From: Promethearchaeum syntrophicum | GTDB taxonomy: Archaea; Asgardarchaeota; Lokiarchaeia; Sigyniarchaeales; Promethearchaeaceae | Assembly: GCF_008000775.2 (NCBI RefSeq) | Contig: NZ_CP042905.2 | Span: 2,310,001-2,342,000, forward strand | DNA length: 32,000 nt | Direction of reading: 5' to 3' | Part shown: positions 376-31,919 of the stretch, in pieces | Layout of the letters: the number at the start of each line of letters is the position of its first letter | Position numbering within the stretch: position 1 is the stretch's first letter | Notes under the pieces: generated by a model | The model's database searches: none | Told to the model about the DNA's origin: nothing | Seen by the model: only the letters and a program-made list of their open reading frames with translations | Position numbers and translations under genes: made by a program

Positions 376-625
376 TTGATTTATTACCACTTTTTGTATT
401 GTTTGATATATTTATGTTGTTTATCTTGCAATTTAATTCTTCTATTTTTATGATTGATTAAGATACTTAGGATCTTGATTTTCATAATCGAAATATTCAA
501 TAACACAGTGAATTCATTGAAAACTTTTCTCTCTCCGTATGATTTTTTAAAATTAAACAAAATTAATGCTTTATCCTAAAAATGAAATAAATATATAAAT
601 AAGACAATACAATTTTATTCATAAA

Positions 626-3600
626 ATGCCAAAAAAGAAAGAAAAAAATTCTAATCAATTACCAAATGAAAAATCAGAGAAATGGAAGAATTTTAAAAAA
701 AATGCCGCTAAAGGGCTTAAAACCACATTAAAATGGGCATTAATGATAGGACCTGTATTTATCCCTGCAGCAACCCCTATAAGTGCATGTGTATCTTTTA
801 TTAGTCAATTTCTGTCAAAACAACTTCATATGGAAATTGATGAAAAACAAATTTCTGACAGATTATCCAAAGATACAAATTCCATCTCATCAAAATTGAT
901 TACTTCAGAGATAATTAATCACCTAAAAACTAAAAATAAATCCATAACTAACAAAAAATCTATTGAAATTGAGGATACTCTCATAAAACTCGAAAAATCC
1001 CTTGAATATATCCAAAAAAACCAAGAACGAGATCCTGATTCTTTTAAGGAAGTTTATCAGGGATTTTTAGAAGAGTTAAAAGAGGAAAATATTGAGAATT
1101 ATTCAAAACTACAAAAAGTCATTAGTAAGCAAAATGATTTCTTCGACTCCTTTAATCAAAATATCGTTGGATTTTTAGATGATATAAAACAACCCTTATG
1201 GAATTCAAAATTTCAAAATCAGAAGAAAATTCTGGAGTATACTGATGATGACTTACAATTTTTTTGCCAAAAACAACTCGAAATAGAAGAAATCTCATCT
1301 AGATATGATGAACCATATGATAAGGAGCGTTTTGTCCCAGTACAAAAATTAGAAGACGAGTTTGAACGTTTTTCTAAGAATTTGCAAAATAAAGTCAGTA
1401 AAGAGCGTATTTTCCTAATGTTAGGACATATGGGACTAGGAAAAACATGGAATGCTTCCTATATTGGATATAAATATAATGATCAAATTCCAACCTTTAT
1501 TTTTAATTTAGGAACCGCTTTTGAAACAAAATTTGAAAATTGTTTTGGAGATTTATTTGAAAAGAATCCTTTAGAGAACTATTTCAAACGTAAAACTTCA
1601 AACCAATATGGGGAAAAATTATTACTTATTTTTGATGGTTTTGATGAAATTCTACCAAATGAACGTGAAGATATTTTCAATTCAATTATTAATTTGGTTA
1701 AAACGAATCCCAACAAATTAATTATCTTCCTAACTTCACGTCTTGTAGACTGGATTCATACCCCAGTTGTATATTCAAAAGCACGGTCTTATCGAAATTA
1801 TATTTTTCAAAATCAACAATTTGATTCTTTTGAAGATATTTCTATACCGACTGGGGCAAGTTTTATTCTTTCTGATATAAATGATTCCACTTTCCTTAAA
1901 GAAATTACCTCAAAGTATGAAATTGATTATGATTTGATTCAAAACCCTAAGATAAAAATTCTTTTACATAAACCCTTTATTGTTAAACTAATTTCTTCGC
2001 ATAATCCCGACCTAGCCTATCAAGATTTTAATCCTCAAGATGATAAATGGTTCCAAATTTTTGCAGGTCCTAAAAAATATAACACAATTCTGCATCGAAT
2101 GGGAATCCTTGAAGCTGTCGAAAATACATTTCAAGATTTAATCTGTATGATTGGAGATCCATATACTCCAATTTTGGAACAAGAATTGAGGGAGTTTATT
2201 AAACCAAATCAAATCCATTGGGATATTATATTTTCTAGTGGAATTATTAAGAAACGCCAAAAAAACCTTCAAAATGAATTTTATTTCCCTGACGAATATC
2301 AAGATTTCATCGAAAGATATATAACGGAATTAAAAGGAATATTTCATGAAAATGTCATTTGTAAAGCGGATGTTTATGCGCTCGAATCAATTGAAAAAGA
2401 ATTATCAGGCTTCAAAATACAAAATTATACATTTGTCCCCTATAAAGATTTGAATGTTGGATACAAACTAAATAATAAAGGCAGGGTTATTGAAATGTAT
2501 TTAAAAAAACTACAAAATAAATTAAGTTATTTTCCCGAGGGTTTAACTAATCTTATAGAATTAAAAAGATTAAGTTTGGCTAACAATCAAATAGTTAATA
2601 TCCCTAAATCGATCGAAAAATTAAGATTTTTAGAATTTTTAGAGCTTGATAATAATTATATTACTCAAATCCCTCAAGAAATTCAAAAATTAAAAAACTT
2701 AAATCGCATCAGTATAAAAAATAACAATATTCAATTTTTCAAAGGGTGGTGGAATAACCTAAAAAATCTAAAATATATGAATATCAGCAATAATACTAGT
2801 CATATTGAAGGTCATACAATCAAATCAGTTCCGAAAAATTGCTCAATAATTGATGATGGATTTGAAGAAAATTCAGAAATTGTTCTAAAAGATGCTGCTA
2901 TTATTGATTATCTCAATAATTTAAAAAATGAGAATTTTGAAAAGCGCAGTGCAAACTTTAAAGATTTACATTTAATTTCACTGACTCTTAGAAATGCTGA
3001 ATACGATGAATTTAAGGGACTATTTTGGTCATCTGAGAATTTAGCAAGTTTAGAAATCCAAGGCAAATCAGTAAAATTTATGCATAATTCCTCAATTAAG
3101 AAACTTATTTTCAGACAAGATAAAACTCGAGAATTAATGATTGATGAATCGATTTCTCAATTGGAAAGCTTGGAATCGCTTCAAATTTATGGTTATAATA
3201 CCTTAGAACTTCCAGAATCTTTGAAAAAATGTGAAAAATTAAAACAAATTATTATTCAATGCCCAGAACTACAAGTATTGCCACAAATTTTGCTTGAAAT
3301 TAAAAATTTCCATAATATCTTTGTTTCCACTTCAAATATTCCGCTTAATGATATAGATCTTGGAGAATATCAAGATTCAGAGAAATCCCTGATAATTATT
3401 CAATTAAATAAGCAATATAATTTTGCAGACCTACTAATTCCAGAACACATTCACAATTTTTGCTTAATTTCCAGAATTAATATGCCAAAAAAAGTGATTG
3501 TTAAGGGAAAACTTAGAAAATTCTTCTATTTATCGATTAATAAAATTACTATGGATTTTTATAAAAATCTCTCGTTTGGGCATGATAAAAATATTGGAAA

Positions 3601-3877
3601 TTTTTACTTCATCGATTTACGAAGACGCAGTAATCAAATATTCGATTTAGAATGTGATTTCAATACCTTAGAATATTTTTTAATTTCACACCTTGGTCTA
3701 AATCATCTACCTGATTGGATGTTCTCTTCCCAAAATATAATTAAAGTTAAAATACATCACGGCGATATAGGGAAGTCCTATGATCAAATCTTTCAATCTG
3801 TTGAAAAAGGAGTTTTCCACTTCTTTGTTCAAAACGGATGCAGAATTCCGGAAAATATTGGTAGTTTTGTAAAATAG
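626..3877 (+). CDS. NLR-like STAND NTPase: N-terminal hydrophobic segment + coiled-coil region, NACHT NTPase, C-terminal leucine-rich repeats
   Basis: 1083-aa ORF. Hydrophobic stretch WALMIGPVFIPAATPISACVSFISQFL (aa 37-63). Walker A GHMGLGKT (nt 1424-1447). Walker B LLLIFDGFDE (nt 1619-1648), which has the NACHT-type hhhhDGxDE form. LIIFLTSR motif. LRRs such as LTNLIELKRLSLANNQIVNIPKSIEKLRFLEFLELDNNYITQIPQEIQKLKNL from about aa 635, with further degenerate LRRs toward the C-terminus. TATA-like aaatatataaat lies ~30 nt upstream of the ATG. Confidence 0.85.
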   Translation: MPKKKEKNSNQLPNEKSEKWKNFKKNAAKGLKTTLKWALMIGPVFIPAATPISACVSFISQFLSKQLHMEIDEKQISDRLSKDTNSISSKLITSEIINHLKTKNKSITNKKSIEIEDTLIKLEKSLEYIQKNQERDPDSFKEVYQGFLEELKEENIENYSKLQKVISKQNDFFDSFNQNIVGFLDDIKQPLWNSKFQNQKKILEYTDDDLQFFCQKQLEIEEISSRYDEPYDKERFVPVQKLEDEFERFSKNLQNKVSKERIFLMLGHMGLGKTWNASYIGYKYNDQIPTFIFNLGTAFETKFENCFGDLFEKNPLENYFKRKTSNQYGEKLLLIFDGFDEILPNEREDIFNSIINLVKTNPNKLIIFLTSRLVDWIHTPVVYSKARSYRNYIFQNQQFDSFEDISIPTGASFILSDINDSTFLKEITSKYEIDYDLIQNPKIKILLHKPFIVKLISSHNPDLAYQDFNPQDDKWFQIFAGPKKYNTILHRMGILEAVENTFQDLICMIGDPYTPILEQELREFIKPNQIHWDIIFSSGIIKKRQKNLQNEFYFPDEYQDFIERYITELKGIFHENVICKADVYALESIEKELSGFKIQNYTFVPYKDLNVGYKLNNKGRVIEMYLKKLQNKLSYFPEGLTNLIELKRLSLANNQIVNIPKSIEKLRFLEFLELDNNYITQIPQEIQKLKNLNRISIKNNNIQFFKGWWNNLKNLKYMNISNNTSHIEGHTIKSVPKNCSIIDDGFEENSEIVLKDAAIIDYLNNLKNENFEKRSANFKDLHLISLTLRNAEYDEFKGLFWSSENLASLEIQGKSVKFMHNSSIKKLIFRQDKTRELMIDESISQLESLESLQIYGYNTLELPESLKKCEKLKQIIIQCPELQVLPQILLEIKNFHNIFVSTSNIPLNDIDLGEYQDSEKSLIIIQLNKQYNFADLLIPEHIHNFCLISRINMPKKVIVKGKLRKFFYLSINKITMDFYKNLSFGHDKNIGNFYFIDLRRRSNQIFDLECDFNTLEYFLISHLGLNHLPDWMFSSQNIIKVKIHHGDIGKSYDQIFQSVEKGVFHFFVQNGCRIPENIGSFVK

Positions 3878-4199
3878 TACCCAGACGGAAAAACCAGAGC
3901 TGTAAGGCAACGCCAAACCAGAAGGCGATAAGTAAAGAAGAACTTAAAAAACAAATAACTAAAAATGTTGAAGAAAAAGTCAAAGTCGAATACAGAGAGA
4001 AATTTAAAAAATTCTAAATTTACTGCTTTGGATGCTCTTTTCTAGTTTTGATAATCAAAACACTCACAACTATCCCTGCAACTATCCAAAATTTCCATCC
4101 GAAAGAAATTGATTCGCTTTCTTCAGGATTCTCAAGTTCATCAGTGTCATAAATATTGTAAGTTTCATTGCTGTAGGTATTATTGATGTATTGTTATAT

Positions 4200-4412
4200 C
4201 TAAAAAGGAAGGGAAAGAAAATCACCAAAAAGTCTACTCATACCATCGGTACTTTCGGTTCCACTTTTTGATGTCAGGATTTCCATCCCGATAGTTTGCC
4301 CCAGCGGGGCGTTTCTCTGCCGGATTGTATCCTGATTAAAATTTTCTAATTTCTGATAGGCACCGAATTCAGATAAATCTTCTCCTGTACCAAGGTTTCT
4401 AATACGTAACAT
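4200..4412 (-). CDS. hypothetical small protein (doubtful, possibly a gene remnant)
   Basis: 70-aa ORF in a locally GC-richer stretch with no recognisable motif. The same frame continues past TAG and TAA stops into a hydrophobic C-terminal tail (see findings). Confidence 0.25.
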   Translation of the reverse strand: MLRIRNLGTGEDLSEFGAYQKLENFNQDTIRQRNAPLGQTIGMEILTSKSGTESTDGMSRLFGDFLSLPF

Positions 4413-4465
4413 TATTTTAGATAACCTTTAAGTACCAGTTGATATACAAGTTTATTTTTACCTAA

Positions 4466-4663
4466 TTACTGAAATTTCCAAATATCGATGTTTTTTTCTG
4501 AAAATCGAACTAATACTCCACAATTGGGACATACATCATAATACATTTTAGGTGAACCATAAGTGGTACGTTCAGATATATGATCCCATTCCTTGAATGT
4601 TGATACTTCATTACACACTTTACACTTCATTTTCTGATTTTTATCAATACCCATAACTAACAT
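4466..4663 (-). CDS. small zinc-ribbon protein
   Basis: 65-aa ORF with CxxC...CxxC (KCKVCNEV...VCPNCGV). Divergent from the TIR-LRR gene, 101 nt away. Confidence 0.5.
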   Translation of the reverse strand: MLVMGIDKNQKMKCKVCNEVSTFKEWDHISERTTYGSPKMYYDVCPNCGVLVRFSEKNIDIWKFQ

Positions 4664-4764
4664 TAGATTATAAAAAAATAAAAATTAGAACAATAATAAT
4701 TATTGATAGATTTCAAAAGACAAAAGAGGGAGATTTTATTTCGAGCGGTACCAAACATTCAACT

Positions 4765-5916: not shown

Positions 5917-6334
5917 ACGATTAAATTTGGCTCTTTTTTTATATTTGACTCAATTGGAGTATTTATATTTAAGAAAAAACAAAATCAAGAGGTTTCCAGA
6001 AATACTATCTCAATTCAGAAATCTAAAAATATTCCTATTCTATGATAATTTGCTATCTGATAATCGCAGTCCCGGTTCCATGACACAAAGTAATTATAAT
6101 ACCTTAAAATTTTTACTCAATAACAAATGCAAGATAGATGATGGGTTTAAAACTATGGTTGCTACCGACTACAGAAAAGTCCATGCATTATATAAAACTA
6201 TCTATTGTATTTTCTGTGGACATGGTTTTAATATATACCAAGAAAATCTTCCAATTAATGCATCAAAGAAATGGATATTATGTCCGAATTGTAACAGCGA
6301 AAAACATTATGAATTCAAAAGTATAGTTGAAGAT
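5536..6334 (+). repeat. diverged tandem duplication of the LRR/Zn-ribbon coding segment (copy 1 ~5536-5913, copy 2 ~5945-6334)
   Basis: At the DNA level, 'actcaattggagtattt' opens both copies, followed by colinear codon-level similarity. The protein alignment is described above. Confidence 0.65.
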
Positions 6335-6337
6335 TGA
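5927..6337 (+). CDS. LRR + zinc-ribbon fragment: truncated tandem paralog of the 3' third of the TIR-LRR gene (possibly a pseudogene)
   Basis: 136-aa ORF with a TTG start, 10 nt after the upstream stop. LTQLEYLYLRKNKIKRFPEILSQFRNLKIFLF...CIFCGHGF...LCPNCN aligns colinearly with aa ~258-383 of the upstream protein. It has no TIR domain. Confidence 0.5.
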   Translation: MALFLYLTQLEYLYLRKNKIKRFPEILSQFRNLKIFLFYDNLLSDNRSPGSMTQSNYNTLKFLLNNKCKIDDGFKTMVATDYRKVHALYKTIYCIFCGHGFNIYQENLPINASKKWILCPNCNSEKHYEFKSIVED

Positions 6338-6566: not shown

Positions 6567-6827
6567 TCATTTGTAAACATTTCTTCGATGTCCAATCTTA
6601 ATAATATCAATAATTTTGATTTTTTTACTTATTGTGTATAAAATTCGATAATCTCCTGCTCTCCGTTTAAATACTTTATTAGGTAAATATTTTTTAACAT
6701 TTCCATCATTTTCATAAGGATTTAATTGAATTTCATCTAAAACACGAATAACAGCAGTTTGATTTATTTCATCCAAATTTGAAATGAAATTTTCCCATTT
6801 CCTTGGAATTCGAATTTTCCAAGACAT
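6567..6827 (-). CDS. RelE/ParE-family type II toxin (mRNA interferase-like)
   Basis: 86-aa ORF. RAGDYRILYTISKKIKIIDIIKIGHRRNVYK matches the family hallmark (GDYRI.Y...I..IGHR..VY). TATA-like tttatatataa sits ~24 nt upstream of the ATG on the minus strand (plus 6846-6856). Confidence 0.8.
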   Translation of the reverse strand: MSWKIRIPRKWENFISNLDEINQTAVIRVLDEIQLNPYENDGNVKKYLPNKVFKRRAGDYRILYTISKKIKIIDIIKIGHRRNVYK

Positions 6828-7700: not shown

Positions 7701-9146
7701 ATGGATAGCAATATAGACAATATACTAAGAAATTTTGTAATTAAATGGAGAGAATCTAAGGAAAAATCAAAAGTTTTTGATGAAGAAATCGGATTTATGA
7801 ATTTTCCCATTCCTACACAGTTCTTTGTATTTGAATTTAAACATAAAGCTATTCCATTTTATATTATTTTAAAAACTCATTTCTCCAATAAAAAAGATTT
7901 AATTATTCAAAAGAAAGGTAATTTCTCATTGAATAATAACCAGAAGTTGAAAAATTTTCAAGAGGAACTTAACTCTATTTTTCAAATATACTTTTCTAAA
8001 AATGAAAAGGACGAGATCCTTGATTTAATTGCCAGATTTTTGAATAACCAATTTGTGGGTAAGGAGATCGAAATATTGAAAGTTGGGTTTAGATCATCAA
8101 CAACACTAATTAACAATATAAGCATTGGGATTTATTTCGGAGATTGGAATAAATTAAATATTGAAGAAGATGTGAAGAAAAATATTAAAATTCAGAAGGA
8201 AATGGAGAATACATTCGTAAATTTCATGAAATCAAGATATGATAGAATTGATTGTATAGGTGCTTATTTATACCCTCCAATATGGATTGGAATATTACCT
8301 GTACTCTCATTTACAGAAAAAATGCAAGAGATTAAATTAAATGAGATTATTGAAAAGAAGATTGTAGAAGTTGACCATAGGAAAGTAATTTATACTTCTG
8401 ATGGTTATTTTGCAGTGGAAATAAAAAACTCAGTAGATGGATTCAATATCGAAGAAAAAGTGGAAAAATCACCAGAAGAGATATCCTCGATATTAGAAAT
8501 GATGAATTTATTAAATTCCATCTTATTACTGAAAGATTTTCCTATTAATGCTATTCAACGAAGTAATATTTCTTCTTTATGTTATTATATTCCTGAAACA
8601 AATTTTCTATATTTTAGTGTCAAATCAAATTCCGATGCTTCAGAATTATTGAATGATCGGCAGAAGCATATCACAAATGTGCATATAGAGAAAAAAATTA
8701 ATATACCCTTAGAAATATTCAAAGAAAGCATAAGAGAAGTAAAGATGTTAGCAGAAAATAACGAATTAAAAGATTTTAAAGAATTGATTATCACTGGATT
8801 AAATTCTTCAACGAATTATTCACATTTTGAATATCCTCAATCATTTATTCTTGGATGGACAATAATTGAGCAGTATATTAACAATTTGTATAATAAAAAA
8901 CTTAGTTTACAAAATATTCCAAAAGGAAAAAACCCTTCAGTCTATAATAAAATCAAAACATTGAAATCAGCATTTCAAATTAATAATAAGGATTATATAT
9001 TGCTAAATAAACTTCGGATTAAAAGAAATGATTATGTTCATGATTTAACGATGATTGATAAAAAAAATGCTCAAACTTGTTTAGATTTTAGTTTAAAATT
9101 ATTAAAAATATCGTATAATGAAAAAATATCTCATGTTTCTCAATAA
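7701..9146 (+). CDS. protein with a C-terminal HEPN-like domain (putative RNase); N-terminal ~380 aa uncharacterised
   Basis: 481-aa ORF. RNDYVH (aa 442-447, nt 9024-9041) fits the HEPN Rx4-6H motif and lies in a helical context (KLRIKRNDYVHDLTMIDKKNAQTCLDFSLKLLK). Confidence 0.65.
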   Translation: MDSNIDNILRNFVIKWRESKEKSKVFDEEIGFMNFPIPTQFFVFEFKHKAIPFYIILKTHFSNKKDLIIQKKGNFSLNNNQKLKNFQEELNSIFQIYFSKNEKDEILDLIARFLNNQFVGKEIEILKVGFRSSTTLINNISIGIYFGDWNKLNIEEDVKKNIKIQKEMENTFVNFMKSRYDRIDCIGAYLYPPIWIGILPVLSFTEKMQEIKLNEIIEKKIVEVDHRKVIYTSDGYFAVEIKNSVDGFNIEEKVEKSPEEISSILEMMNLLNSILLLKDFPINAIQRSNISSLCYYIPETNFLYFSVKSNSDASELLNDRQKHITNVHIEKKINIPLEIFKESIREVKMLAENNELKDFKELIITGLNSSTNYSHFEYPQSFILGWTIIEQYINNLYNKKLSLQNIPKGKNPSVYNKIKTLKSAFQINNKDYILLNKLRIKRNDYVHDLTMIDKKNAQTCLDFSLKLLKISYNEKISHVSQ

Positions 9147-15385: not shown

Positions 15386-15763
15386 TTAATATATTAAATC
15401 TTGAATATTTATTCTTTTTTTCTTCTTTAATTTTCTCAATTTCTCCATAATAATATCAACATTTGCCTCCTCACTTTTATTATACTGTGAGATCATGTGG
15501 TTTATGTATTCAATTTTAAAAATTGATACTCCTGGATTATTCTTATTTTGCTTTTTTGTATTTATTTTCTTTAAAAAAAATCCTTCATCTTCCATATCTT
15601 TGATAAATCTTGATGATTCAATGTAATCCTTAAGAATATGGCCATGATAACCGTGAATAATACTTATTTTACTAATTTTCTTTTTCCAGCATGTTCTGAG
15701 GTAAATTAAAACCTTTTCAATTGCTTCTTTGAAGCGGTTGTTATGCAAATCACATTTGAGCAT
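15386..15763 (-). CDS. Smr (small MutS-related) domain protein, putative nicking endonuclease
   Basis: 125-aa ORF. CDLHNNRFKEAIEKVLIYL...ISIIHGYHGHILKDYI matches the Smr LDLHG...IIHGkG layout. Confidence 0.7.
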   Translation of the reverse strand: MLKCDLHNNRFKEAIEKVLIYLRTCWKKKISKISIIHGYHGHILKDYIESSRFIKDMEDEGFFLKKINTKKQNKNNPGVSIFKIEYINHMISQYNKSEEANVDIIMEKLRKLKKKKRINIQDLIY

Positions 15764-15960: not shown

Positions 15961-17058
15961 ATGAAAGATAAATCACGAATTACTGTAAGAGTTCCTTCTT
16001 GGGTTAAGGAAGAAATGGATAAGAAAAATGAAATAAACTGGTCTCAGATTATCAGGAATATTCTAATCGAATATATAAAAATTGAAGATTTTCCTTTACA
16101 TTTCCGAAGGATCGTTAAAAAACATAAATTATCAGAGAATTGGGATTTATTAAAAGCCTTTTACTTATTTTCAGCAAATGATGACAAAAAATCGTTGAGA
16201 TCCAACTTATACACAGTATTCGATGAAAGGGCTGATGAAATCGAAAATGATCTAAAAAAAACATTAATTGATCTCGGTATTCAATATAAGGTCGAAATTC
16301 CCAAAGAACAGAACATTAAAGAGAATATTTTAAATATTTTATTCGAAGAAGGAGTAATTTCCGATTTAGAGGGAGAAATAGATAGATTGTTTGAGCATGT
16401 TGAAATCAAATCTAAGATAAATGAAGCTATTTGGTATTTAGGGCTCTACCTAAAAGATGAATCCGACTTTGAACCTAATAGTGTCTCATTTGCAGGCGAT
16501 GGTTTAAACATCTACTTTTCGCATTTATTCGACGATCCTGAGAAAATTATCAATGAACTTATAAAAATTGGAGTTTTAAGCCAATCCAATTACAGAAGTA
16601 ATGCATACTCATACACAATATACAGATTGTTAGATCAATCAATAAAATTAGTTAAAGAAATACAACTTAATCCAGAGAAATATTCACTCACCCATCTTGA
16701 TTTATCACAGAATATTGAAGATCTTCTTCATCATGAGAGAAATCGATTTTTAATAAAATCATTAGATCAAGGACTTGATGTCCATAATAGGTATAATAAT
16801 ACAATTCAAGATTTTGAAGAGAAATTCGGTGAGGGGTCATTTAATGATACATTAGATGAACTGGTCAAGAAAGGTATCATTATATGTAATTACTCTCCCA
16901 GTCGTAAACGATCCGGAAAGAGAGGTGCAATGCGATCAAGTTTATATTATAAGTTATCCAAAACGGGTGAAGAGAAACTTAAAGAATATATTTTAAACCG
17001 ACATCTACAGAATAAAGAAGGAAAAGTGCAAAGTATTATTGAATTGTATGAACTTTAA
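15961..17058 (+). CDS. ribbon-helix-helix (CopG-like) DNA-binding protein with C-terminal winged-helix-like segments
   Basis: 365-aa ORF. N-terminus RITVRVPSWVKEEMDKKNEINWSQIIRNILIEYI has an RHH pattern. LDELVKKGIIICNY...LYYKLSKTGEEKL is wHTH-like. Confidence 0.65.
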   Translation: MKDKSRITVRVPSWVKEEMDKKNEINWSQIIRNILIEYIKIEDFPLHFRRIVKKHKLSENWDLLKAFYLFSANDDKKSLRSNLYTVFDERADEIENDLKKTLIDLGIQYKVEIPKEQNIKENILNILFEEGVISDLEGEIDRLFEHVEIKSKINEAIWYLGLYLKDESDFEPNSVSFAGDGLNIYFSHLFDDPEKIINELIKIGVLSQSNYRSNAYSYTIYRLLDQSIKLVKEIQLNPEKYSLTHLDLSQNIEDLLHHERNRFLIKSLDQGLDVHNRYNNTIQDFEEKFGEGSFNDTLDELVKKGIIICNYSPSRKRSGKRGAMRSSLYYKLSKTGEEKLKEYILNRHLQNKEGKVQSIIELYEL

Positions 17059-17403
17059 GAAAAATTACTTTGGATAGAATCAATTTACAGTTTCAAATAT
17101 CCTAATTCAGTCTGGAAAATGTCGTAAATAAAGGTCATTTCCGATAATAATTCAAAGTGAAAAGGAAAATGAATGAACTTGAAGATTGGTGTTAAAAAAC
17201 AACTTGATCTACTTCAAGGGGGTAATGATTATTATTTTAAACTTTTAATTCTAATTCTTTGTAATCTATATCCAGATTCCTATGAGTGTAATGCTACTTG
17301 ATTTCTGATTTTTATTTTTGTGCTTGGAAAATTGTCTAAAAAGCCTTATAATCAATAAAATATAACAATAAAATATTATTTTCAATAAGGTTTTGGTTAA
17401 AAT

Positions 17404-18666
17404 ATGGAAAAAATAAACAGAAAAGATATCGAATCTACCTTTAATAATTTAATATCACCAAAATTGAAAGATTTAAATCTCGTTTTCGATTTTGAAAAGA
17501 AATTGACGGAAATAAAAAAAAAAGCAGATATTATAATTTACAAGAATCCACCCATCATCTTAGAAATAAAAATTTCTACCTCGTTCTCTATATTACAGTT
17601 TTTAAAATTTGATCTTATTCAATGGAAAAAATATAACAATGGATATTGCAAAATAATGTACATATTCCTTAATAATATTGATCTCAAGAAATCATACCTA
17701 AGTGAACAAAGATTTAAGAAATATATAACTGAACATCCCGAAATATCACATTTCATTGATGAATACATATTTTTAGAATATGACGAAAATGCAAATCTAT
17801 TAGAAAATATTGATTTGCAGGAAATAACTGATAAAATAAAAAAATTATTGGAATCAGATTTAGTAATCACCCCAATTATCGATAAAATGAATTCTTATAA
17901 TATTGGTTTTGATTCACAAAAAAATCTCCCTTCAATTGAATATTTTGATGAGAACTCAATCGGATTATTTGAAATTTTATTAACATTCTTATATAGTAAG
18001 GCATCTCAAGAGAATCAAGAAAATATCAAGAGTAAATTTATTCGTTTAGAAAATGAAAATCCAAGCAATCAGCTCTTTTTGAATTCTTTTGAATACTTTT
18101 TTGAGAATGGTTTTAATAAAATGGATGAGACTCTCTTCATTTCGCTTTTTGATAAATTTCCAAGTAATTATTTTCAGAAATTTAGTAAAAATACGCAAGA
18201 TCCTGTATGTAATTTCTTTGCGAATTTAAAATCCACTTTAGAACCACTTTTTCCAAAAACACAAATCTGTACTAAAAAGTATAATTTAGTCGAAAAAAAA
18301 ATTGAATTAATAAAACATATATTGTCTCATACTAATTTTAATATTTTTTCTGATCAAATCAAACTAAAGGAACAAGATTCGATACTTTTATTAGATGATG
18401 GCAATTCAATAGTTATTTTCTGTATTTATCAAAGATTTGCAAATTTTGACTTCTATAGTAATTACTTATTTGCACGTTATGCAATTAAGTCGAAAAAATT
18501 CTATCCAATTATTTTTTATTGTGAATCCAGTGTCCTACATACAAAAAGGTATTATCGATTAAAAAATTCGAAATTAATTTCAATCAAAATAACAGAGTTT
18601 AAAAAAACAATAGACAATGTAAATAGAATTTTCAAACAAATTGGAGGATTAAATGTCGATGGTTGA
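17404..18666 (+). CDS. hypothetical protein with a possible N-terminal PD-(D/E)xK nuclease motif
   Basis: 420-aa ORF. KKADIIIYKNPPIILEIKIS fits a D...ExK nuclease core. No NTPase motif. The 3' end overlaps the next gene by 14 nt. Confidence 0.5.
   Translation: MEKINRKDIESTFNNLISPKLKDLNLVFDFEKKLTEIKKKADIIIYKNPPIILEIKISTSFSILQFLKFDLIQWKKYNNGYCKIMYIFLNNIDLKKSYLSEQRFKKYITEHPEISHFIDEYIFLEYDENANLLENIDLQEITDKIKKLLESDLVITPIIDKMNSYNIGFDSQKNLPSIEYFDENSIGLFEILLTFLYSKASQENQENIKSKFIRLENENPSNQLFLNSFEYFFENGFNKMDETLFISLFDKFPSNYFQKFSKNTQDPVCNFFANLKSTLEPLFPKTQICTKKYNLVEKKIELIKHILSHTNFNIFSDQIKLKEQDSILLLDDGNSIVIFCIYQRFANFDFYSNYLFARYAIKSKKFYPIIFYCESSVLHTKRYYRLKNSKLISIKITEFKKTIDNVNRIFKQIGGLNVDG
18643..18647 (+). 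promoter_or_regulatory. Shine-Dalgarno-like GGAGG for the coupled downstream gene
   Basis: ggagg lies 5 nt upstream of the ATG at 18653, inside the 3' end of the upstream ORF. Confidence 0.5.
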
Positions 18667-19606
18667 AGAAAATTTAACTCAAAATCAGAATGAAGGTTCA
18701 GAAATTGATGATGTTTCTAATGAACAATTAAACGACACAATTTTATCCGAATTAGATGAGGAACAAGAAGAGTATCAAGAATTAATTTTGGAACGAGAAA
18801 AAGAACAAGAAGAATTTGAGAAATCTGTTGAAGAGTTGAAAGAGGAATTAAAACCTTTAATAAATAATTTTTGCGAAATTTGTTCAAAGACAGATAAAAT
18901 TACATTTGAACAAGAAATCAAGCAAATTTACAAAGAATACGAAGCTAATCATTATAGTGCATTAGCATTATATTGTGGAAGGGTTTATGAATATATTATT
19001 TATCAGCTAGGTTGGAAAGTTTTACAAAATGCTATGTATTCAACAATGTTTGTTAATTCCGAACCAGAAAGAAAAAGAAGACATACTATAATAAATGAAA
19101 TCGAAGGCTATTTAACTATTAAAGCCTATGGTCATTCTAAAACAGATTATTCTCAATATTTTCGAATCTACGATGATAAAATTTATAGTATCCGAAATAA
19201 AGCAGCCCATCCAAAATATGATGGAAGTTTTAGTCTGATTTCTAAACGAGAAGCAGAAGAGGCAATTAAAACTTTGATTGAGGCGATATCATTTTTAAAT
19301 GAGAAATTTTATCAAGTTAAACAAATAGAAAAAGGAATAGAATTTGAAATTCGAGCAATTTTTGATAGGATAATGCCTTTTTTTAGTGGAACAATAGAGA
19401 TACAAGAAGAAATTTTGCATTTTAAAGAAAATGAAGATATAATAAAGGCATTTATTGAATTCTTTAAATTGATCATAATTGAAAAAAGTTGGAAATATCA
19501 GGCTGAATTTAATAAATTATTAAAAGAAAATGTAGATATTAGAGAATCATTAAAGATTTTAAAAAAAATATACAAGGATTTAAATTTAAAAAGTCTAGAT
19601 AATTAA
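18653..19606 (+). CDS. HEPN-like domain protein with an acidic coiled-coil N-terminus
   Basis: 317-aa ORF. RNKAAH (aa 181-186, nt 19193-19210) fits the HEPN Rx4-6H motif, in the context IYSIRNKAAHPKYDG...EAEEAIKTLIEAISFL. The N-terminal ~70 aa are E/Q-rich. Confidence 0.65.
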   Translation: MSMVEENLTQNQNEGSEIDDVSNEQLNDTILSELDEEQEEYQELILEREKEQEEFEKSVEELKEELKPLINNFCEICSKTDKITFEQEIKQIYKEYEANHYSALALYCGRVYEYIIYQLGWKVLQNAMYSTMFVNSEPERKRRHTIINEIEGYLTIKAYGHSKTDYSQYFRIYDDKIYSIRNKAAHPKYDGSFSLISKREAEEAIKTLIEAISFLNEKFYQVKQIEKGIEFEIRAIFDRIMPFFSGTIEIQEEILHFKENEDIIKAFIEFFKLIIIEKSWKYQAEFNKLLKENVDIRESLKILKKIYKDLNLKSLDN

Positions 19607-19785: not shown

Positions 19786-21507
19786 TTATATATCTAAAAT
19801 TTTCTGAAATTGTTCTTTTATTAATTTTTCTCGCTCTCCGATAAAATTCTGAAAATTTGAAAAAGATAAATCTACATTAGGGATAAAATTTTGATTTTTA
19901 TAAATTATAATTTGCTCATTATCAAATGTATTATTAAGCCATGATAAGAAATCCTTATTAGATTTTTCTTCGTTCAATTTTCCAGACATTAGCTGCAGAT
20001 TACCGATTTTATCACATATTTTACGAAATATGTCAATATTTTCTTCCGAAATACCTAATTCTCTAAGTTTCTTCTTTTTAAAATAACTTTTAGGAAAAAT
20101 ATGATCTTGATGAAAATGATTTCTAAAATCTAAAGAGGGATAGAGAAGAGACAAAATAGTAAAAGTAAATCTTTGACCATATTTATTAGATAATAATTCA
20201 TCAATTTCATCATTAGTAAAAATTAAAGATTTAGGGGTTCCTCGAAAATGTTCAATCATTTCGTTAATTGGAAAATACTTAGGATTTTGTTGAATTATTG
20301 TTCTCATCGGTAGTAATACATTATCAGGCTGTCCACTAAACATTCTTTTTAAAAGCACAATAGCTAACCATTTCTGTATTATTTTTCGATCATTTTTGTA
20401 TAAATCAGATGAAAGGAAGGAACTAGAAAAATCATTAGTATAAATAAAATATGCTATTGGGATTATTGAATTATTTGAAGACAAGGTTTGAAAACTATAA
20501 CCTAAATTCGCAATTAGATTTATTGTGATTCTCAAAGTTTTTTTTATTTTATTCCAATTTTCTTCAATGGTTAACATATTATTTTTATTAAAATTATCAA
20601 CTTTAAACGCAATCTTGGGAAAATTACATAGCACCAAACACGTTTTTAAAATAAAATCTTTACTAAATTTAAAGCCATCCGGAATTTTATTGATTTCATC
20701 ATTAAAAGCTGATATCTGTTCACGAGCATCCAATTTTTCCCATTGAGCAGTCGCAATGGACAGTAATAAATCTGAATAGCTCAATATTGTCCCACCACTG
20801 TTAATTCTAATAAAAATATTTAATACTTTATCTAATTCTTGACTTTTCTCCATAAAATAATTAATATTTTCTTCAAAATTAATTCCTTCAAAAAGAGCAG
20901 ATAAGCGTTTATGAATTTTTTTATTTTCAAATAATCCATGAGATACTAAGTATGAAAAAACATCACCTAAATCTCCCATATCTAAAATTTTTCCCACCTT
21001 GAACCATCGTTCTTGTTCAGATTGAATTGATGCTTCTTTGGGAGTTAAAAATTGAAAATCATATTTCATATCGCTTTCTTGGGAATCTCTCATTAGATTA
21101 ATGTATAATATTTTTTTGGGAAAAGCTGTATCGTTAAACCAACGTTTTCTGGGTATTTTTTCTGCATAACTACCTTTTAATCCTAAATACAATGCTGTTA
21201 ATCTTTGTTGACCATCAAGAATAGCAATTAAATCATTATCTCCATAAATAGATGCTTTTTGATTATGTTTATTATCCCGTTCATGAAAGTTCCGTATAAA
21301 TTCATAAAATTGAAAATTATTTTTCTTTTCATTCGCGACTTCCCATAAAAGGAAAGAACCAATTGGATATTTTTGCATTATTGAATCAAATAATCTACAT
21401 ATTTGTTTTTTATTCCATACAAATTCCCTTTGAATTGCAGGAAGAATATAATTTTTCTTCTGTATTTTATTAATTACTTCTTTTATTGTAATTTTTGCAT
21501 GTGGCAT
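19786..21507 (-). CDS. DUF262 + DUF1524 (GmrSD-like) putative type IV modification-dependent restriction endonuclease
   Basis: 573-aa ORF. N-terminal ILPAIQREFVWNKKQ and LDGQQRLTALYLG are DUF262/ParB-like hallmarks. C-terminal HQDHIFPKS...GNLQLMSGKLNEEKSNK has a DUF1524 His-Me finger pattern. Confidence 0.85.
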   Translation of the reverse strand: MPHAKITIKEVINKIQKKNYILPAIQREFVWNKKQICRLFDSIMQKYPIGSFLLWEVANEKKNNFQFYEFIRNFHERDNKHNQKASIYGDNDLIAILDGQQRLTALYLGLKGSYAEKIPRKRWFNDTAFPKKILYINLMRDSQESDMKYDFQFLTPKEASIQSEQERWFKVGKILDMGDLGDVFSYLVSHGLFENKKIHKRLSALFEGINFEENINYFMEKSQELDKVLNIFIRINSGGTILSYSDLLLSIATAQWEKLDAREQISAFNDEINKIPDGFKFSKDFILKTCLVLCNFPKIAFKVDNFNKNNMLTIEENWNKIKKTLRITINLIANLGYSFQTLSSNNSIIPIAYFIYTNDFSSSFLSSDLYKNDRKIIQKWLAIVLLKRMFSGQPDNVLLPMRTIIQQNPKYFPINEMIEHFRGTPKSLIFTNDEIDELLSNKYGQRFTFTILSLLYPSLDFRNHFHQDHIFPKSYFKKKKLRELGISEENIDIFRKICDKIGNLQLMSGKLNEEKSNKDFLSWLNNTFDNEQIIIYKNQNFIPNVDLSFSNFQNFIGEREKLIKEQFQKILDI

Positions 21508-23733: not shown

Positions 23734-25035
23734 CTAAAACATTGAATCCGATTTCAGACATATACTTGGATAAGGAGCTTCTGGGGCGAATGATGTCTTA
23801 TCTCGTAGAGATGCGTAGGTAATTTTTGCAATCTTGCCTGCTATAATACAATATGCAAGTTTTTTAGATCGATCTCCTTTTCGGGCGAGAATGCGGTTTG
23901 TATACGCTTTTAGATCGGATTCATGTTTTAGAAAATTACAAACCACTACTGCCGCATTATAAAAGAGTGTGCGTAAGAATTTGTTAGAATGTCGATTTGT
24001 GTGCGCATGATAGATCTTTCCTGCTGAACTTACTACATTTGGGCAACATCCACAATACGAACGAAAATGTCGCCAAGATGGAAAATAGGATATTGAACCA
24101 ATCTCGGCTAAAATCCAAACTGCCGAAAATGAGGAGATACCTGGGATTGTAGATAATTGATGTGCTTGTTGCCTAAGACCTGGACAATCTAAAAGTAGTT
24201 TATCTACTTCCAAAGCAAGAATGGTTTTACGGCTGGTTTTAAAATCTAAATCAATCAAATGTTGTCGAATTAGTGCTCGTTGTACAGAAGTAAGGGATAA
24301 TTCGTAAAATGACTCAAATTTGGCTTCATTTTTAACCAAACTATTTCGATGTTTTAATAAAACATTAGGATTTTGCATAAAATCTTGAGTGAATTGTCCT
24401 AATGTCTTTGATTGCTGAATAAACCCATAAAGGAAATATTTGGTCCATTCATGATTCAAATTTAATCCGCGAGGACGAATGCCTGCACGATCCAACGTTT
24501 TTCGAATTCGATTCTTTAGCATTGTACGATCTTTTTCTAGTTTTATGGCCATTCGGAAGATTGCTTTGAGATCTTCAAGAATAAAAATAATTTTCTTACC
24601 ATTTTTAAGGAGGCCATTAGCGACGTACTTTGCAAGTTTGATGGCATCAATCTTATCGTGTTTTGCAGTACCTGGAATTCCCGCAGCGTCTGCTGGATTT
24701 GAAACAACTATGTCATAAGACCAACTCGAATCAAGCCGTTTTCTTTCTAAAAATTGAACAACGGCATGATGATAGATTCCTGTAGATTCCATCGCAAATG
24801 CTACAGGGCGATATTTTTTTACAAATCCAAAAAGTTGTCTTAATCCATCTTGATCCGTTTGAAAAATACTGGTTTTTATAAAATCTCTGTTAGTTCGGTC
24901 TCTTGCATAGATACAAGCAGTAATTTCATGTTTATGCACATCCATCCCACAATAATAAATCACTCTTGTGAGATCTTCCGAAAATTTAAACGGTTTCTTT
25001 TCCATAATATACTCACCCTTCAAGGGACCAAACAC
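23734..25035 (-). CDS. IS110-family (DEDD) transposase
   Basis: 433-aa ORF. N-terminal CGMDVHKHE...ESTGIYHH is RuvC-like DEDD. C-terminal PGISSFSAVWILAEIGSISYF...FRSYCGCCPNVVSSAGK...NKFLRTLFYNAA is Transposase_20-like. The true start may be the second Met (ATG at 25005-25003). Confidence 0.9.
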   Translation of the reverse strand: MFGPLKGEYIMEKKPFKFSEDLTRVIYYCGMDVHKHEITACIYARDRTNRDFIKTSIFQTDQDGLRQLFGFVKKYRPVAFAMESTGIYHHAVVQFLERKRLDSSWSYDIVVSNPADAAGIPGTAKHDKIDAIKLAKYVANGLLKNGKKIIFILEDLKAIFRMAIKLEKDRTMLKNRIRKTLDRAGIRPRGLNLNHEWTKYFLYGFIQQSKTLGQFTQDFMQNPNVLLKHRNSLVKNEAKFESFYELSLTSVQRALIRQHLIDLDFKTSRKTILALEVDKLLLDCPGLRQQAHQLSTIPGISSFSAVWILAEIGSISYFPSWRHFRSYCGCCPNVVSSAGKIYHAHTNRHSNKFLRTLFYNAAVVVCNFLKHESDLKAYTNRILARKGDRSKKLAYCIIAGKIAKITYASLRDKTSFAPEAPYPSICLKSDSMF

Positions 25036-31439: not shown

Positions 31440-31919
31440 TCACCTTCCAACATCACGTGCGGCTTCTTCAATCCAAGATCCAATATTATATTTTCCCTTA
31501 TCATCAAACCAATCATAAATTGGAACATGATCTGATAAAGGTTGATTATAATCATCATAAACATATTCAAAAGGATTATTTCCCTTTGTATCCCTTTTTC
31601 TATATTTATTTCGCAATTTGTGGATATAAATGCCCAACAATGCATTATTTTTGAGATAACTTTGTTTAATTTCATATTTAATCCATCTTCTATAAGACGT
31701 TTCTTGCCCAATTAAAACTACGGTCACTGAAGTTCCATGAAGAGTTTGATTTATTAGTTTTTTTATTTCTTGATCATTAAAAGTAGGATGATTTTCTTCG
31801 ATCGAACCATCCCAAAAACCAGCAGCTTCTCTTGTTTCAGCATAGTACCAAGAACTTTTGATATATCTTGCTCTCCAAATATCTCTTTGATAATGAAAAC
31901 TAAAAAAAACTACCCTCAT
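31440..31919 (-). CDS. ThsB-like TIR-like domain protein (DUF1863/MTH538 TIR-like family)
   Basis: 159-aa ORF. MRVVFFSFHYQRDIWRARYIKSSW...AAGFWDGSIEE...LINQTLHGTSVTVVLIGQETSYRRWIKYEIKQS...LLGIYIH...KGNNPFEY follows the conserved ThsB/DUF1863 pattern (FFSFHYq.D..R...v...W, TSVTVVLIG..T..RrW..YEI, G.NPF). Confidence 0.8.
   Translation of the reverse strand: MRVVFFSFHYQRDIWRARYIKSSWYYAETREAAGFWDGSIEENHPTFNDQEIKKLINQTLHGTSVTVVLIGQETSYRRWIKYEIKQSYLKNNALLGIYIHKLRNKYRKRDTKGNNPFEYVYDDYNQPLSDHVPIYDWFDDKGKYNIGSWIEEAARDVGR

Follow-up and report, generated by a model that had tools for sequence, protein, structure and literature searches.

A previously undescribed N-terminal module, a candidate membrane effector, on an NLR-like STAND NTPase from a defence island of the Asgard archaeon Promethearchaeum syntrophicum

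The window analysed here is a stretch of 32,000 nucleotides (contig NZ_CP042905.2, positions 2,310,001 to 2,342,000) from Promethearchaeum syntrophicum MK-D1, a cultured Asgard archaeon. Near its beginning, at 626-3877 on the plus strand, a single uninterrupted open reading frame (ORF) encodes a protein of 1083 amino acids (aa), 100% identical to a P. syntrophicum protein annotated by NCBI as 'leucine-rich repeat domain-containing protein'. The gene is part of a defence island. The layout of its product is tripartite: a conserved N-terminal module, a NACHT-like STAND NTPase and a C-terminal solenoid of leucine-rich repeats (LRRs) (Table 1). The start site is shared with the 72%-identical ortholog P0002, and both proteins begin MPKK. 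By its sequence the protein is a real NLR-like defence STAND carrying a previously undescribed N-terminal module, for which a membrane-effector role is plausible, if tentative. A preliminary description of this DNA, made from the letters alone, had proposed an NLR-like receptor whose N-terminal hydrophobic helix and coiled coil might act on membranes.

Table 1 Coordinates of the gene, its domains and motifs, and neighbouring features in the window
Feature	Position	Strand	Basis or remark
TATA-like AT-rich string atatataaat	591..600	+	26-35 nt 5' of ATG, read from sequence
Whole gene, 1083-aa NLR-like STAND NTPase	626..3877	+	ORF and identity to NCBI protein
Lys-rich basic leader, aa 1-36	626..733	+	12 K+R vs 3 D+E; family motif
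Pro-rich hydrophobic hairpin, aa 37-66 (37-63 uncharged)	734..823	+	Hydropathy, AlphaFold2 model, P0002 comparison
All-helical charged bundle, aa 67-235	824..1330	+	AlphaFold2 model; no Pfam family or structural match
Nucleotide-binding oligomerisation (NOD) module: nucleotide-binding domain, helical domain, winged helix; aa 236-600	1331..2425	+	Pfam, alignment, AlphaFold2, Foldseek
Walker A GHMGLGKT, aa 267-274	1424..1447	+	Homolog alignment
Walker B with NACHT-type acidic pair, LLLIFDGFDE, aa 332-341	1619..1648	+	Homolog alignment
Sensor-1 motif LTSR, aa 369-372	1730..1741	+	Homolog alignment
Canonical LRR block, ~aa 611-740, 23-residue period	2456..2845	+	Pfam and AlphaFold2 model
Second irregular LRR-like solenoid, ~aa 770-1070	2933..3835	+	Weak Pfam, AlphaFold2 model, dN/dS 0.34
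Homology breakpoint vs ortholog P0002, at stop codon	3872..3880	+	~357 aa of further repeats missing
888-bp gap, no long ORF, higher GC	3878..4764		Unrelated to missing C-terminus; no Rfam match
Imperfect 16-nt inverted repeat	4451..4466 / 4667..4682		Flanks the 65-aa ORF
65-aa CxxC...CxxC ORF	4466..4663	-	Lies in the gap
TIR_2 + LRR + C-terminal zinc-ribbon (CxxC...CxxC) protein, 383 aa	4765..5916	+	No PADLOC match
136-aa partial tandem duplicate of the preceding protein's LRR/zinc-ribbon tail	5927..6337	+	E 9e-22; TTG start
ParE toxin	6567..6827	-	
DUF4145 protein	7701..9146	+	
Second STAND NTPase, 1972 aa	9440..15358	+	PGGYGKT, ILLIFDGWDE, LVATR motifs
Small Smr-domain protein	15386..15763	-	
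Three consecutive ORFs (365, 420, 317 aa)	15961..19606	+	Last two overlap by 14 nt
GmrSD	19786..21507	-	PADLOC HEC-05, E 1e-223
LRR-only protein, 390 aa	22304..23476	+	Aligns to target aa 538-738, E 1e-12, 28% identity
IS110 transposase	23734..25035	-	Adjoins LRR-only protein
Type IIG restriction-modification enzyme (MmeI-like)	27751..30645	-	PADLOC, E 9e-18
ThsB-type TIR protein	31440..31919	-	E 8e-53

The three NTPase motifs are all found where the preliminary description had placed them, and each is invariant or nearly so in an alignment of 22 homologs. G267, G270, G272, K273 and T274 of Walker A are invariant in this alignment; across 68 wider relatives, G272, D337 and G338 are invariant, and K273/T274, D340, E341 and R372 are conserved in at least 90%. 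GHMGLGKT follows the P-loop pattern GxxxxGK[ST], and LLLIFDGFDE and LTSR follow the NACHT-type Walker B pattern hhhhD-[GAS]-x-D-E and the sensor-1 pattern hhhTSR with its Arg. Koonin and Aravind reportedly gave these Walker B and sensor-1 motifs in 2000 as diagnostic of NACHT. The Pfam models are less decisive. NACHT (PF05729) scores 13 bits on the 1083-aa protein, far below its cut-off of 26.7, and NPHP3_N falls 0.7 bit short (24.1 against 24.8). Within the family, NPHP3_N matches 21 of 22 members and NACHT 15 of 22 (best E 3.7e-5), with nSTAND3 and nSTAND5 competing; NB-ARC (PF00931) has no Pfam match in any member, and none on this protein even at E ≤ 10. The distant relative P0030 exceeds the cut-offs for NACHT (32.4 bits) and NPHP3_N, P0085 nearly reaches that for NACHT (26.6), P0074 exceeds those for nSTAND5 and NPHP3_N, and three members from the protist Kipferlia are named 'NACHT domain-containing' in UniRef. 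Because the motifs conform while the Pfam NACHT score lies below threshold on this protein, it is classed by its sequence as a NACHT-like STAND NTPase.

The full-length AlphaFold2 model (mean predicted local distance difference test score, pLDDT, 83) places the strands and helices of the nucleotide-binding domain at residues 262-415, further helices at 421-509 and a winged helix at 518-592, with the LRRs directly after. Foldseek with this model returns NLRs as its top matches (E 2.5e-13 to 4e-7). The best full-length structural matches are the plant coiled-coil NLR (CC-NLR) resistosomes NRC3 and Sr35, with about 1000 aligned columns, followed by NLRP3 and NOD2; in the model this resemblance concerns architecture, not clade membership. 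At the sequence level, an NTPase-only profile was used against PDB sequences after the wide-family profile had yielded mostly LRR proteins, and its sole STAND matches, NLRC4 (E 0.003-0.02) and NLRP2 (0.15), are weak. With a NACHT-type Walker B, an LRR sensor, NLRs as the leading Foldseek matches, and NACHT, NPHP3_N and nSTAND5 passing threshold in some relatives, the earlier assignment as an NLR-like receptor stands. The two LRR blocks then described differ in strength. Block 1 is significant (Pfam LRR_14, E 2.8e-15, residues 627-723) and shows a strand period of 23 residues in the model; block 2 (about residues 770-1067) is irregular, with a weak Pfam match (LRR_R13L1-DRL21, E 6e-4) and strand/helix periodicity in the model.

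The N-terminal module consists of a Lys-rich leader, a Pro-rich hydrophobic hairpin and a charged helical bundle. Leader and hydrophobic segment had both been pointed out beforehand, and both are confirmed: the leader holds 12 Lys and Arg against 3 Asp and Glu, and the 27-residue uncharged segment at residues 37-63 (WALMIGPVFIPAATPISACVSFISQFL) is the hydropathy maximum of the protein. The Kyte-Doolittle (KD) 19-mer mean of this region is 1.76, where the classical membrane threshold is 1.6; its Wimley-White octanol value is -6.0, the summed Hessa scale gives +5.7 kcal/mol, and it contains three prolines. A local baseline gave a soluble methyltransferase of the same window a KD of 1.74, and hydropathy alone was rejected as proof of a transmembrane (TM) segment. 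With its prolines, its Hessa sum and a soluble enzyme of equal KD, the segment gives no clear TM call for this protein.

In the separate N-terminal AlphaFold model (pLDDT 82, predicted template modelling score 0.78), the module forms a compact helical bundle. The hydrophobic stretch is modelled as a helix (29-41), a Pro-rich loop (42-51) and a second helix (52-67), not as one long helix. Residues 67-235 are 36% charged and predicted all-helical with pLDDT of about 85-95; the charged, helical character once noted for the region after the hydrophobic segment is thus borne out to about residue 235, and the heptad or coiled-coil part of that claim is not supported, the model showing a compact bundle and no extended coiled coil. 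A single-pass helix with its N-terminus inside would place the ATPase outside the cell, and translocation of the polybasic leader is unlikely; the options are therefore a re-entrant hairpin or a latent element freed on activation.

The bundle has no Foldseek match in PDB or BFVD (best E 0.42) and matches no Pfam family in 30 modules scanned. The recurrent sub-threshold Pfam matches (Baculo_PEP_C, DUF1664, DUF948, phasin, apolipoprotein) are to generic amphipathic or coiled-coil families. HeLo, SesA, Rx_N, RPW8 and MLKL were each considered as homologs and rejected: the lone SesA match (P0028, E 0.018) is not repeated among the 30 modules and is ascribed to chance, and Rx_N has no Pfam match on the 1083-aa protein even at E ≤ 10. 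Nothing in these searches therefore speaks for homology to CC, HeLo or MLKL domains, and the analogy drawn in the preliminary description is supported neither by fold nor by sequence. The module matches no described domain, and no account of it or of the family was found in the searchable literature.

The first search returned 21 homologs, all of Promethearchaeota type and mostly 1300-1700 aa long. Eighteen of the 21 carry an extra 145-242 aa at the N-terminus, mostly a CHAT/caspase-like domain; Pfam CHAT is detected in seven members, with conserved HFxGHG and FNxCxS motifs, and the extension of P0020 is a Cap4 double-stranded DNA nuclease (E 5e-11). In this set only three proteins, the 1083-aa protein, P0002 and P0013, have nothing ahead of the basic leader and hydrophobic stretch. 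In the enzyme-bearing homologs, the columns homologous to the hairpin hold 4-7 charged residues in most cases (11 in P0021) and have KD values of 0.45-1.49. No remnant of a CHAT or nuclease domain is found by tblastn upstream of the ATG in the window or in the P0002 locus, and a Pfam scan of the 1083-aa protein reveals no other effector domain.

A sensitive search with residues 1-620 against 1.84 billion representatives yields 86 matches. Distant matches, at 17-24% identity, likewise have a basic leader in first place and, after it, 25-30 hydrophobic residues rich in Gly, Ala and Pro, for example KKLIPIAAGWAAGMFFPPAGNILYSFLK and GLVIASASVLAGAVLGPVAATAVGGFISKKL; their C-terminal sensors vary among LRR, HEAT, MORN or none. 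The module is present in about 45 of 68 relatives, with its hydrophobic peak 213-274 aa upstream of Walker A, hydrophobic segments reaching KD 1.8-2.17 and a leader charge of about +4. The aligned motif reads W-x-K-h-K-x-x-L-K-K-x-G-K, then h-P-h-A-h-x-h-h-x-G-x-x-x-x-P, then an amphipathic helix that closes with Lys; of the motif residues, the central Gly alone is conserved in at least 90% of members. Hydrophobicity follows the position of the segment. Where it lies within 140 aa of the N-terminus (n=48 of 67), the median KD is 1.6-1.8 and the leader net charge +4; where more than 140 aa precede it (CHAT, Cap4 or FHA; n=19 of 67), the median KD is 0.86, none reaches 1.5, and the leader charge is -1. 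The Mann-Whitney p of 1e-7 for this contrast overstates its significance, since the proteins share ancestry and perhaps no more than 3-4 independent events underlie it.

In a rough family-internal neighbour-joining tree lacking support values, P0013 and the pair formed by the 1083-aa protein and P0002 are successive branches beside the CHAT clade, and hairpin-bearing clades lie further out. From this placement the hairpin is taken as the probable ancestral state and the enzyme fusions as derived. The helical bundle is retained in CHAT- and nuclease-bearing relatives. The claim that the N-terminal region is an effector gains in part from these comparisons: leader and hairpin are conserved at a fixed distance from Walker A, form the most constrained region and lose hydrophobicity and charge where CHAT or Cap4 is fused upstream, and similarity to a known effector domain is the part without support. 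Overall, the comparative data strengthen the idea of the N-terminus as a candidate output.

Two members stand apart through long extensions at the N-terminus: P0036 of Odinarchaeota and L008 of Asgardarchaeum abyssi. P0036, annotated by NCBI as FHA-domain-containing, has its Gly-rich hydrophobic stretch about 130 aa upstream of Walker A, not about 234, so further architectural variants exist. The profile search for the module as a portable domain returned one protein, which is a frameshift-split full-length gene: at L030 177-3018, on a marine-sediment contig, a member is divided into three overlapping ORFs (83, 236 and 648 aa), a frameshifted gene or assembly error and not a stand-alone N-terminal module.

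Comparison with P0002, the closest relative, gives the selection profile of the protein. Leader and hairpin (residues 18-66) are 88% identical with a ratio of non-synonymous to synonymous substitution rates (dN/dS) of 0.09, the lowest in the protein, though noisy over 49 codons. Identity is 84% for residues 18-36 and 90% for the hairpin (residues 37-66, dN/dS 0.16). The helical bundle has dN/dS 0.20, the NOD 0.14 at 80% identity, and the repeat blocks 0.25 and 0.34, block 2 being the least constrained. This is the profile to be expected of an NLR, with the switch conserved and the sensor diversifying, and the low value for leader and hairpin also indicates an important function for the N-terminal element.

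At its C-terminus the protein is about 357 aa shorter than P0002. DNA homology stops at the stop codon, beyond which lies unrelated, GC-richer DNA, and a search downstream for a remnant of the missing repeats found none. The truncated allele may still be functional, because the number of repeats varies widely in the family, with C-terminal extensions of 37-423 aa.

The named members of the family belong to Lokiarchaeota, Promethearchaeota, Thorarchaeota, Odinarchaeota and the eukaryote Kipferlia bialata. A scan of 185,579 prokaryotic species, with one genome per species and a family-specific seed pattern, gives 26 confirmed loci, all in Asgard or archaeal metagenome-assembled genomes and none bacterial; they include Heimdall- and Njordarchaeota and Asgardarchaeum. 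About 15 of the 26 have a hydrophobic segment at the expected distance, 13 of these with a 19-mer KD of at least 1.5, and the module recurs in independent Thor-, Prometh- and Njordarchaeota genomes. The family is thus rare, unannotated and known only from Asgard archaea and one protist. Kipferlia, a metamonad, has at least six paralogs (P0042, P0071, P0047, P0069, P0072, P0092), several with a hydrophobic N-terminal segment. Contamination was considered as their source. For the one paralog checked, P0042 (L031, contig BDIP01001591.1, 2650-7928), it was rejected: the contig has 52% GC and the gene more than 10 exons, and P0042 is therefore a real eukaryotic gene. In the neighbour-joining tree the Kipferlia proteins group as a single clade that is nested within the Asgard lineages, which points to archaeon-to-eukaryote transfer or shared ancestry and makes the family a new candidate for tracing the movement of NLR immunity between archaea and eukaryotes.

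Several known systems share parts of this organisation. bNACHT proteins with LRR, HEAT, MORN, FHA and TM elements have been described, and bNACHT16 has C-terminal LRRs (10.1101/2022.07.19.500537); NLR systems in Asgard archaea are known from DefenseFinder surveys, with a hint of ancestry shared with some eukaryotic NACHTs (PMC11291487). The NACHT-LRR combination, called uncommon in prokaryotes in the preliminary description, is accordingly unusual but already known. Like bNACHT, the present protein is a single gene combining an N-terminal output, a NACHT-type NOD and C-terminal repeats, with a D-G-x-D-E Walker B, in a defence island, and the same LRR, HEAT, MORN, FHA and TM elements occur in its family; unlike bNACHT, it has no PADLOC match, scores below threshold for Pfam NACHT, belongs to a family restricted to Asgard archaea and Kipferlia, and bears an N-terminal module without a described domain.

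With the plant CC-NLR resistosomes (ZAR1, Sr35, NRC2/3) it shares a helical N-terminus, a NOD without an HD2 domain and an LRR region, co-linear over about 1000 columns. By analogy it may also share their logic, in which a hydrophobic element at the N-terminus becomes exposed on oligomerisation and attacks the membrane. The TM-scores are low (~0.2), however, and the likeness is architectural only: the plant NTPase is NB-ARC, whereas here PF00931 has no match and Walker B reads DGFDE; the N-terminal domain matches no CC/Rx_N four-helix bundle; and the hydrophobic element starts at residue 37 behind a Lys-rich leader, not at residue 1.

Bell/HeLo-type N-terminal domains occur on prokaryotic and fungal NLRs, the prokaryotic ones typically without LRRs, and among archaea Bell domains have been reported only from Methanosarcinales (10.1101/2020.01.06.895854). 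HeLo, HeLo-like, SesA and Bell domains and the MLKL four-helix bundle resemble the present module as helical bundles with a hydrophobic N-terminal element, proposed or shown there to execute membrane cell death, and HeLo, SesA and Bell likewise stand N-terminal to a NACHT or NB-ARC NOD. Those domains, unlike the module, are some 120-140 aa long and carry an acidic residue at position 2-3; here about 235 aa carry a polybasic leader and a Gly/Ala/Pro-rich hairpin, and no sequence or fold relation is found (SesA in 1 of 30 members; nothing by Foldseek). The Avs proteins offer a further parallel in fitting alternative N-terminal effectors, here CHAT protease, Cap4 nuclease or hairpin module, to one NTPase-plus-sensor chassis. 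Their sensors differ, being mostly TPR-like and recognising terminase, portal and other phage proteins, and no Avs model matches here.

These data are best accommodated by a stand-alone NLR-type antiviral sensor whose oligomerised N-terminal hairpins would attack the membrane and cause abortive infection, a reading put forward with a little under an even chance of being correct. No partner gene is conserved, each of the four loci examined having other neighbours; this indicates a single-gene system that is mobile and stands alone, and the adjacent TIR-LRR protein was rejected on the same ground as an effector acting in trans. In the proposed mechanism, the LRR solenoid would be the fast-evolving sensor, the STAND NTPase the switch and the N-terminal module the output. 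In the resting state the hydrophobic hairpins would lie packed on the helical bundle. Autoinhibition would be released when the repeats bind a viral or foreign ligand, and nucleotide exchange and oligomerisation of the NOD would cluster the N-terminal modules. The basic leaders could then dock onto anionic membrane lipids, and the activated hairpins insert in the cytoplasmic membrane, permeabilising or depolarising it and stopping the infected cell. In sister clades, a CHAT protease or Cap4-type nuclease would have replaced the hairpin output, and the hairpin would have decayed to ordinary amphipathic helices. Loss of some 357 aa of sensor repeats may alter the ligand range or activity of this copy.

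Killing through a membrane-inserting N-terminus by NLR sensors is known in plants, fungi and animals; the locus bears on prokaryotes, especially the archaeal kin of eukaryotes, and stems from the one long-cultured Asgard archaeon. The natural swap between hairpin, CHAT protease and Cap4 nuclease on one chassis makes the membrane-effector hypothesis directly testable. In a bolder version, rated quite improbable, the family would be an Asgard-born NLR lineage whose ancestral output is a polybasic leader and a hairpin inserting into the membrane on oligomerisation. This archaeal 'resistosome' would have a mechanism parallel to those of plant CC-NLR, fungal HeLo and animal MLKL executioners but an unrelated fold, and the family, hairpin included, would have been passed to or shared with eukaryotes, as seen in the Kipferlia paralogs. 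If true, archaea and eukaryotes would be directly linked in NLR-controlled cell death. Even with a purely structural hairpin, the family would count as a new NLR-like defence family specific to Asgard archaea, its effectors being modular.

A number of observations count against a membrane-attacking hairpin. Its hydropathy in this protein is borderline on KD, Hessa sum and proline content, and is nearly equalled by the soluble methyltransferase. AlphaFold packs the hairpin confidently into a globular bundle, which is equally compatible with a purely structural hydrophobic core, and the bundle, being kept alongside CHAT and nuclease domains, is therefore not itself the effector. The central Gly conserved in the family is replaced by Ala48, and the gene is 3'-truncated. 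The correlation of hydrophobicity with enzyme fusion goes back to those 3-4 possible events and to the unsupported tree. Neither Foldseek nor Pfam links the module, by fold or by sequence, to a known pore-forming or executioner domain; PADLOC v2 finds no family on the 1083-aa protein at E ≤ 1; and a profile search, insensitive enough to miss its own inputs, gave no case of the module as a portable domain beyond the family.

Some of the same evidence would suit a constitutive membrane tether, with leader and hairpin as a monotopic (re-entrant) anchor at the inner membrane face, for instance to meet entering viruses, and the output elsewhere, by ligand sequestration or by a bundle recruiting an unlinked partner. 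A basic stretch followed by a hydrophobic one is the classical membrane-targeting layout, and leader and hairpin have this order. The segments of the relatives are clearly hydrophobic (KD 1.8-2.17), the conserved central Gly...Pro suits a hairpin with both ends cytoplasmic, as a cytosolic ATPase needs, and the region is strongly constrained. A plain anchor, however, need not vanish on gain of a protease or nuclease, yet hydrophobicity and charge are gone in every such protein. The tether would also leave the hairpin-bearing members without an output domain or conserved partner, and the AlphaFold placement of the hairpin within a globular bundle speaks against it; such an anchor is considered unlikely.

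The stretch could instead be the buried core of a soluble N-terminal helical domain, serving oligomer contacts or helper recruitment, in a copy that is possibly degenerate or a regulatory remnant. This would explain why the homologous helices of the CHAT clade are ordinary, amphipathic and confidently folded into the bundle, and why a soluble enzyme equals the KD; the leader and the Gly/Ala/Pro-rich hydrophobic composition, kept across Loki/Prometh-, Thor- and Njordarchaeota and Kipferlia, nevertheless exceed what a generic buried helix needs. Decay would fit the truncation at a stop codon followed by unrelated DNA, the lack of an enzymatic effector and of a third of the sensor, the Gly-to-Ala change, and the IS110 transposase and duplicated gene fragments nearby, which show an island in flux. 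It sits badly with a leader/hairpin dN/dS of 0.09 between lineages 28% diverged, a frame intact over 1083 codons and the wide variation of repeat number among relatives. This combined explanation is likewise held to be improbable. Least probable, and scarcely favoured at all, is a non-immune STAND signalling ATPase, sensing for example a partner organism or an environmental ligand, that is merely located among defence genes. STAND NTPases do include regulators such as MalT-type proteins, PADLOC finds nothing on this one, and some homolog loci are not obviously defence islands; against this, both this window and the P0002 locus are rich in bona fide defence genes, CHAT protease and Cap4 nuclease, as borne by the sister proteins, are effectors typical of abortive infection, the fastest-evolving part is the sensor repeats, and Pfam reveals no DNA-binding or other regulatory output domain.

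The neighbouring genes include GmrSD, the type IIG enzyme, the ThsB-type TIR protein, for which no ThsA is seen within the window, and the ParE toxin. The locus of P0002 is a different island, with SLFN/AlbA, DarT-Macro (DarTG) and JetD genes. The second STAND NTPase of the window shows weak Pfam NACHT and nSTAND5 matches, no PADLOC match and no BLAST similarity to the 1083-aa protein. The LRR-only protein aligns to the end of the winged helix and LRR block 1, and may represent a paralog reduced to its sensor, a decoy or what is left of another member. The three consecutive ORFs have no Pfam matches and only a marginal PADLOC match to Cas8f (E 9e-4); they may form an uncharacterised operon within the island.

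The flanks of the gene show two minor features. The AT-rich string upstream of the ATG is a possible archaeal promoter, weak evidence given that the window as a whole has about 27% GC. Downstream, the gap has about 33% GC and no ORF above 78 aa. Neither there nor elsewhere are Rfam or tRNA matches found; there is only the weak inverted repeat around the small CxxC ORF. The gap may be a trace of the rearrangement by which the gene lost its 3' end.

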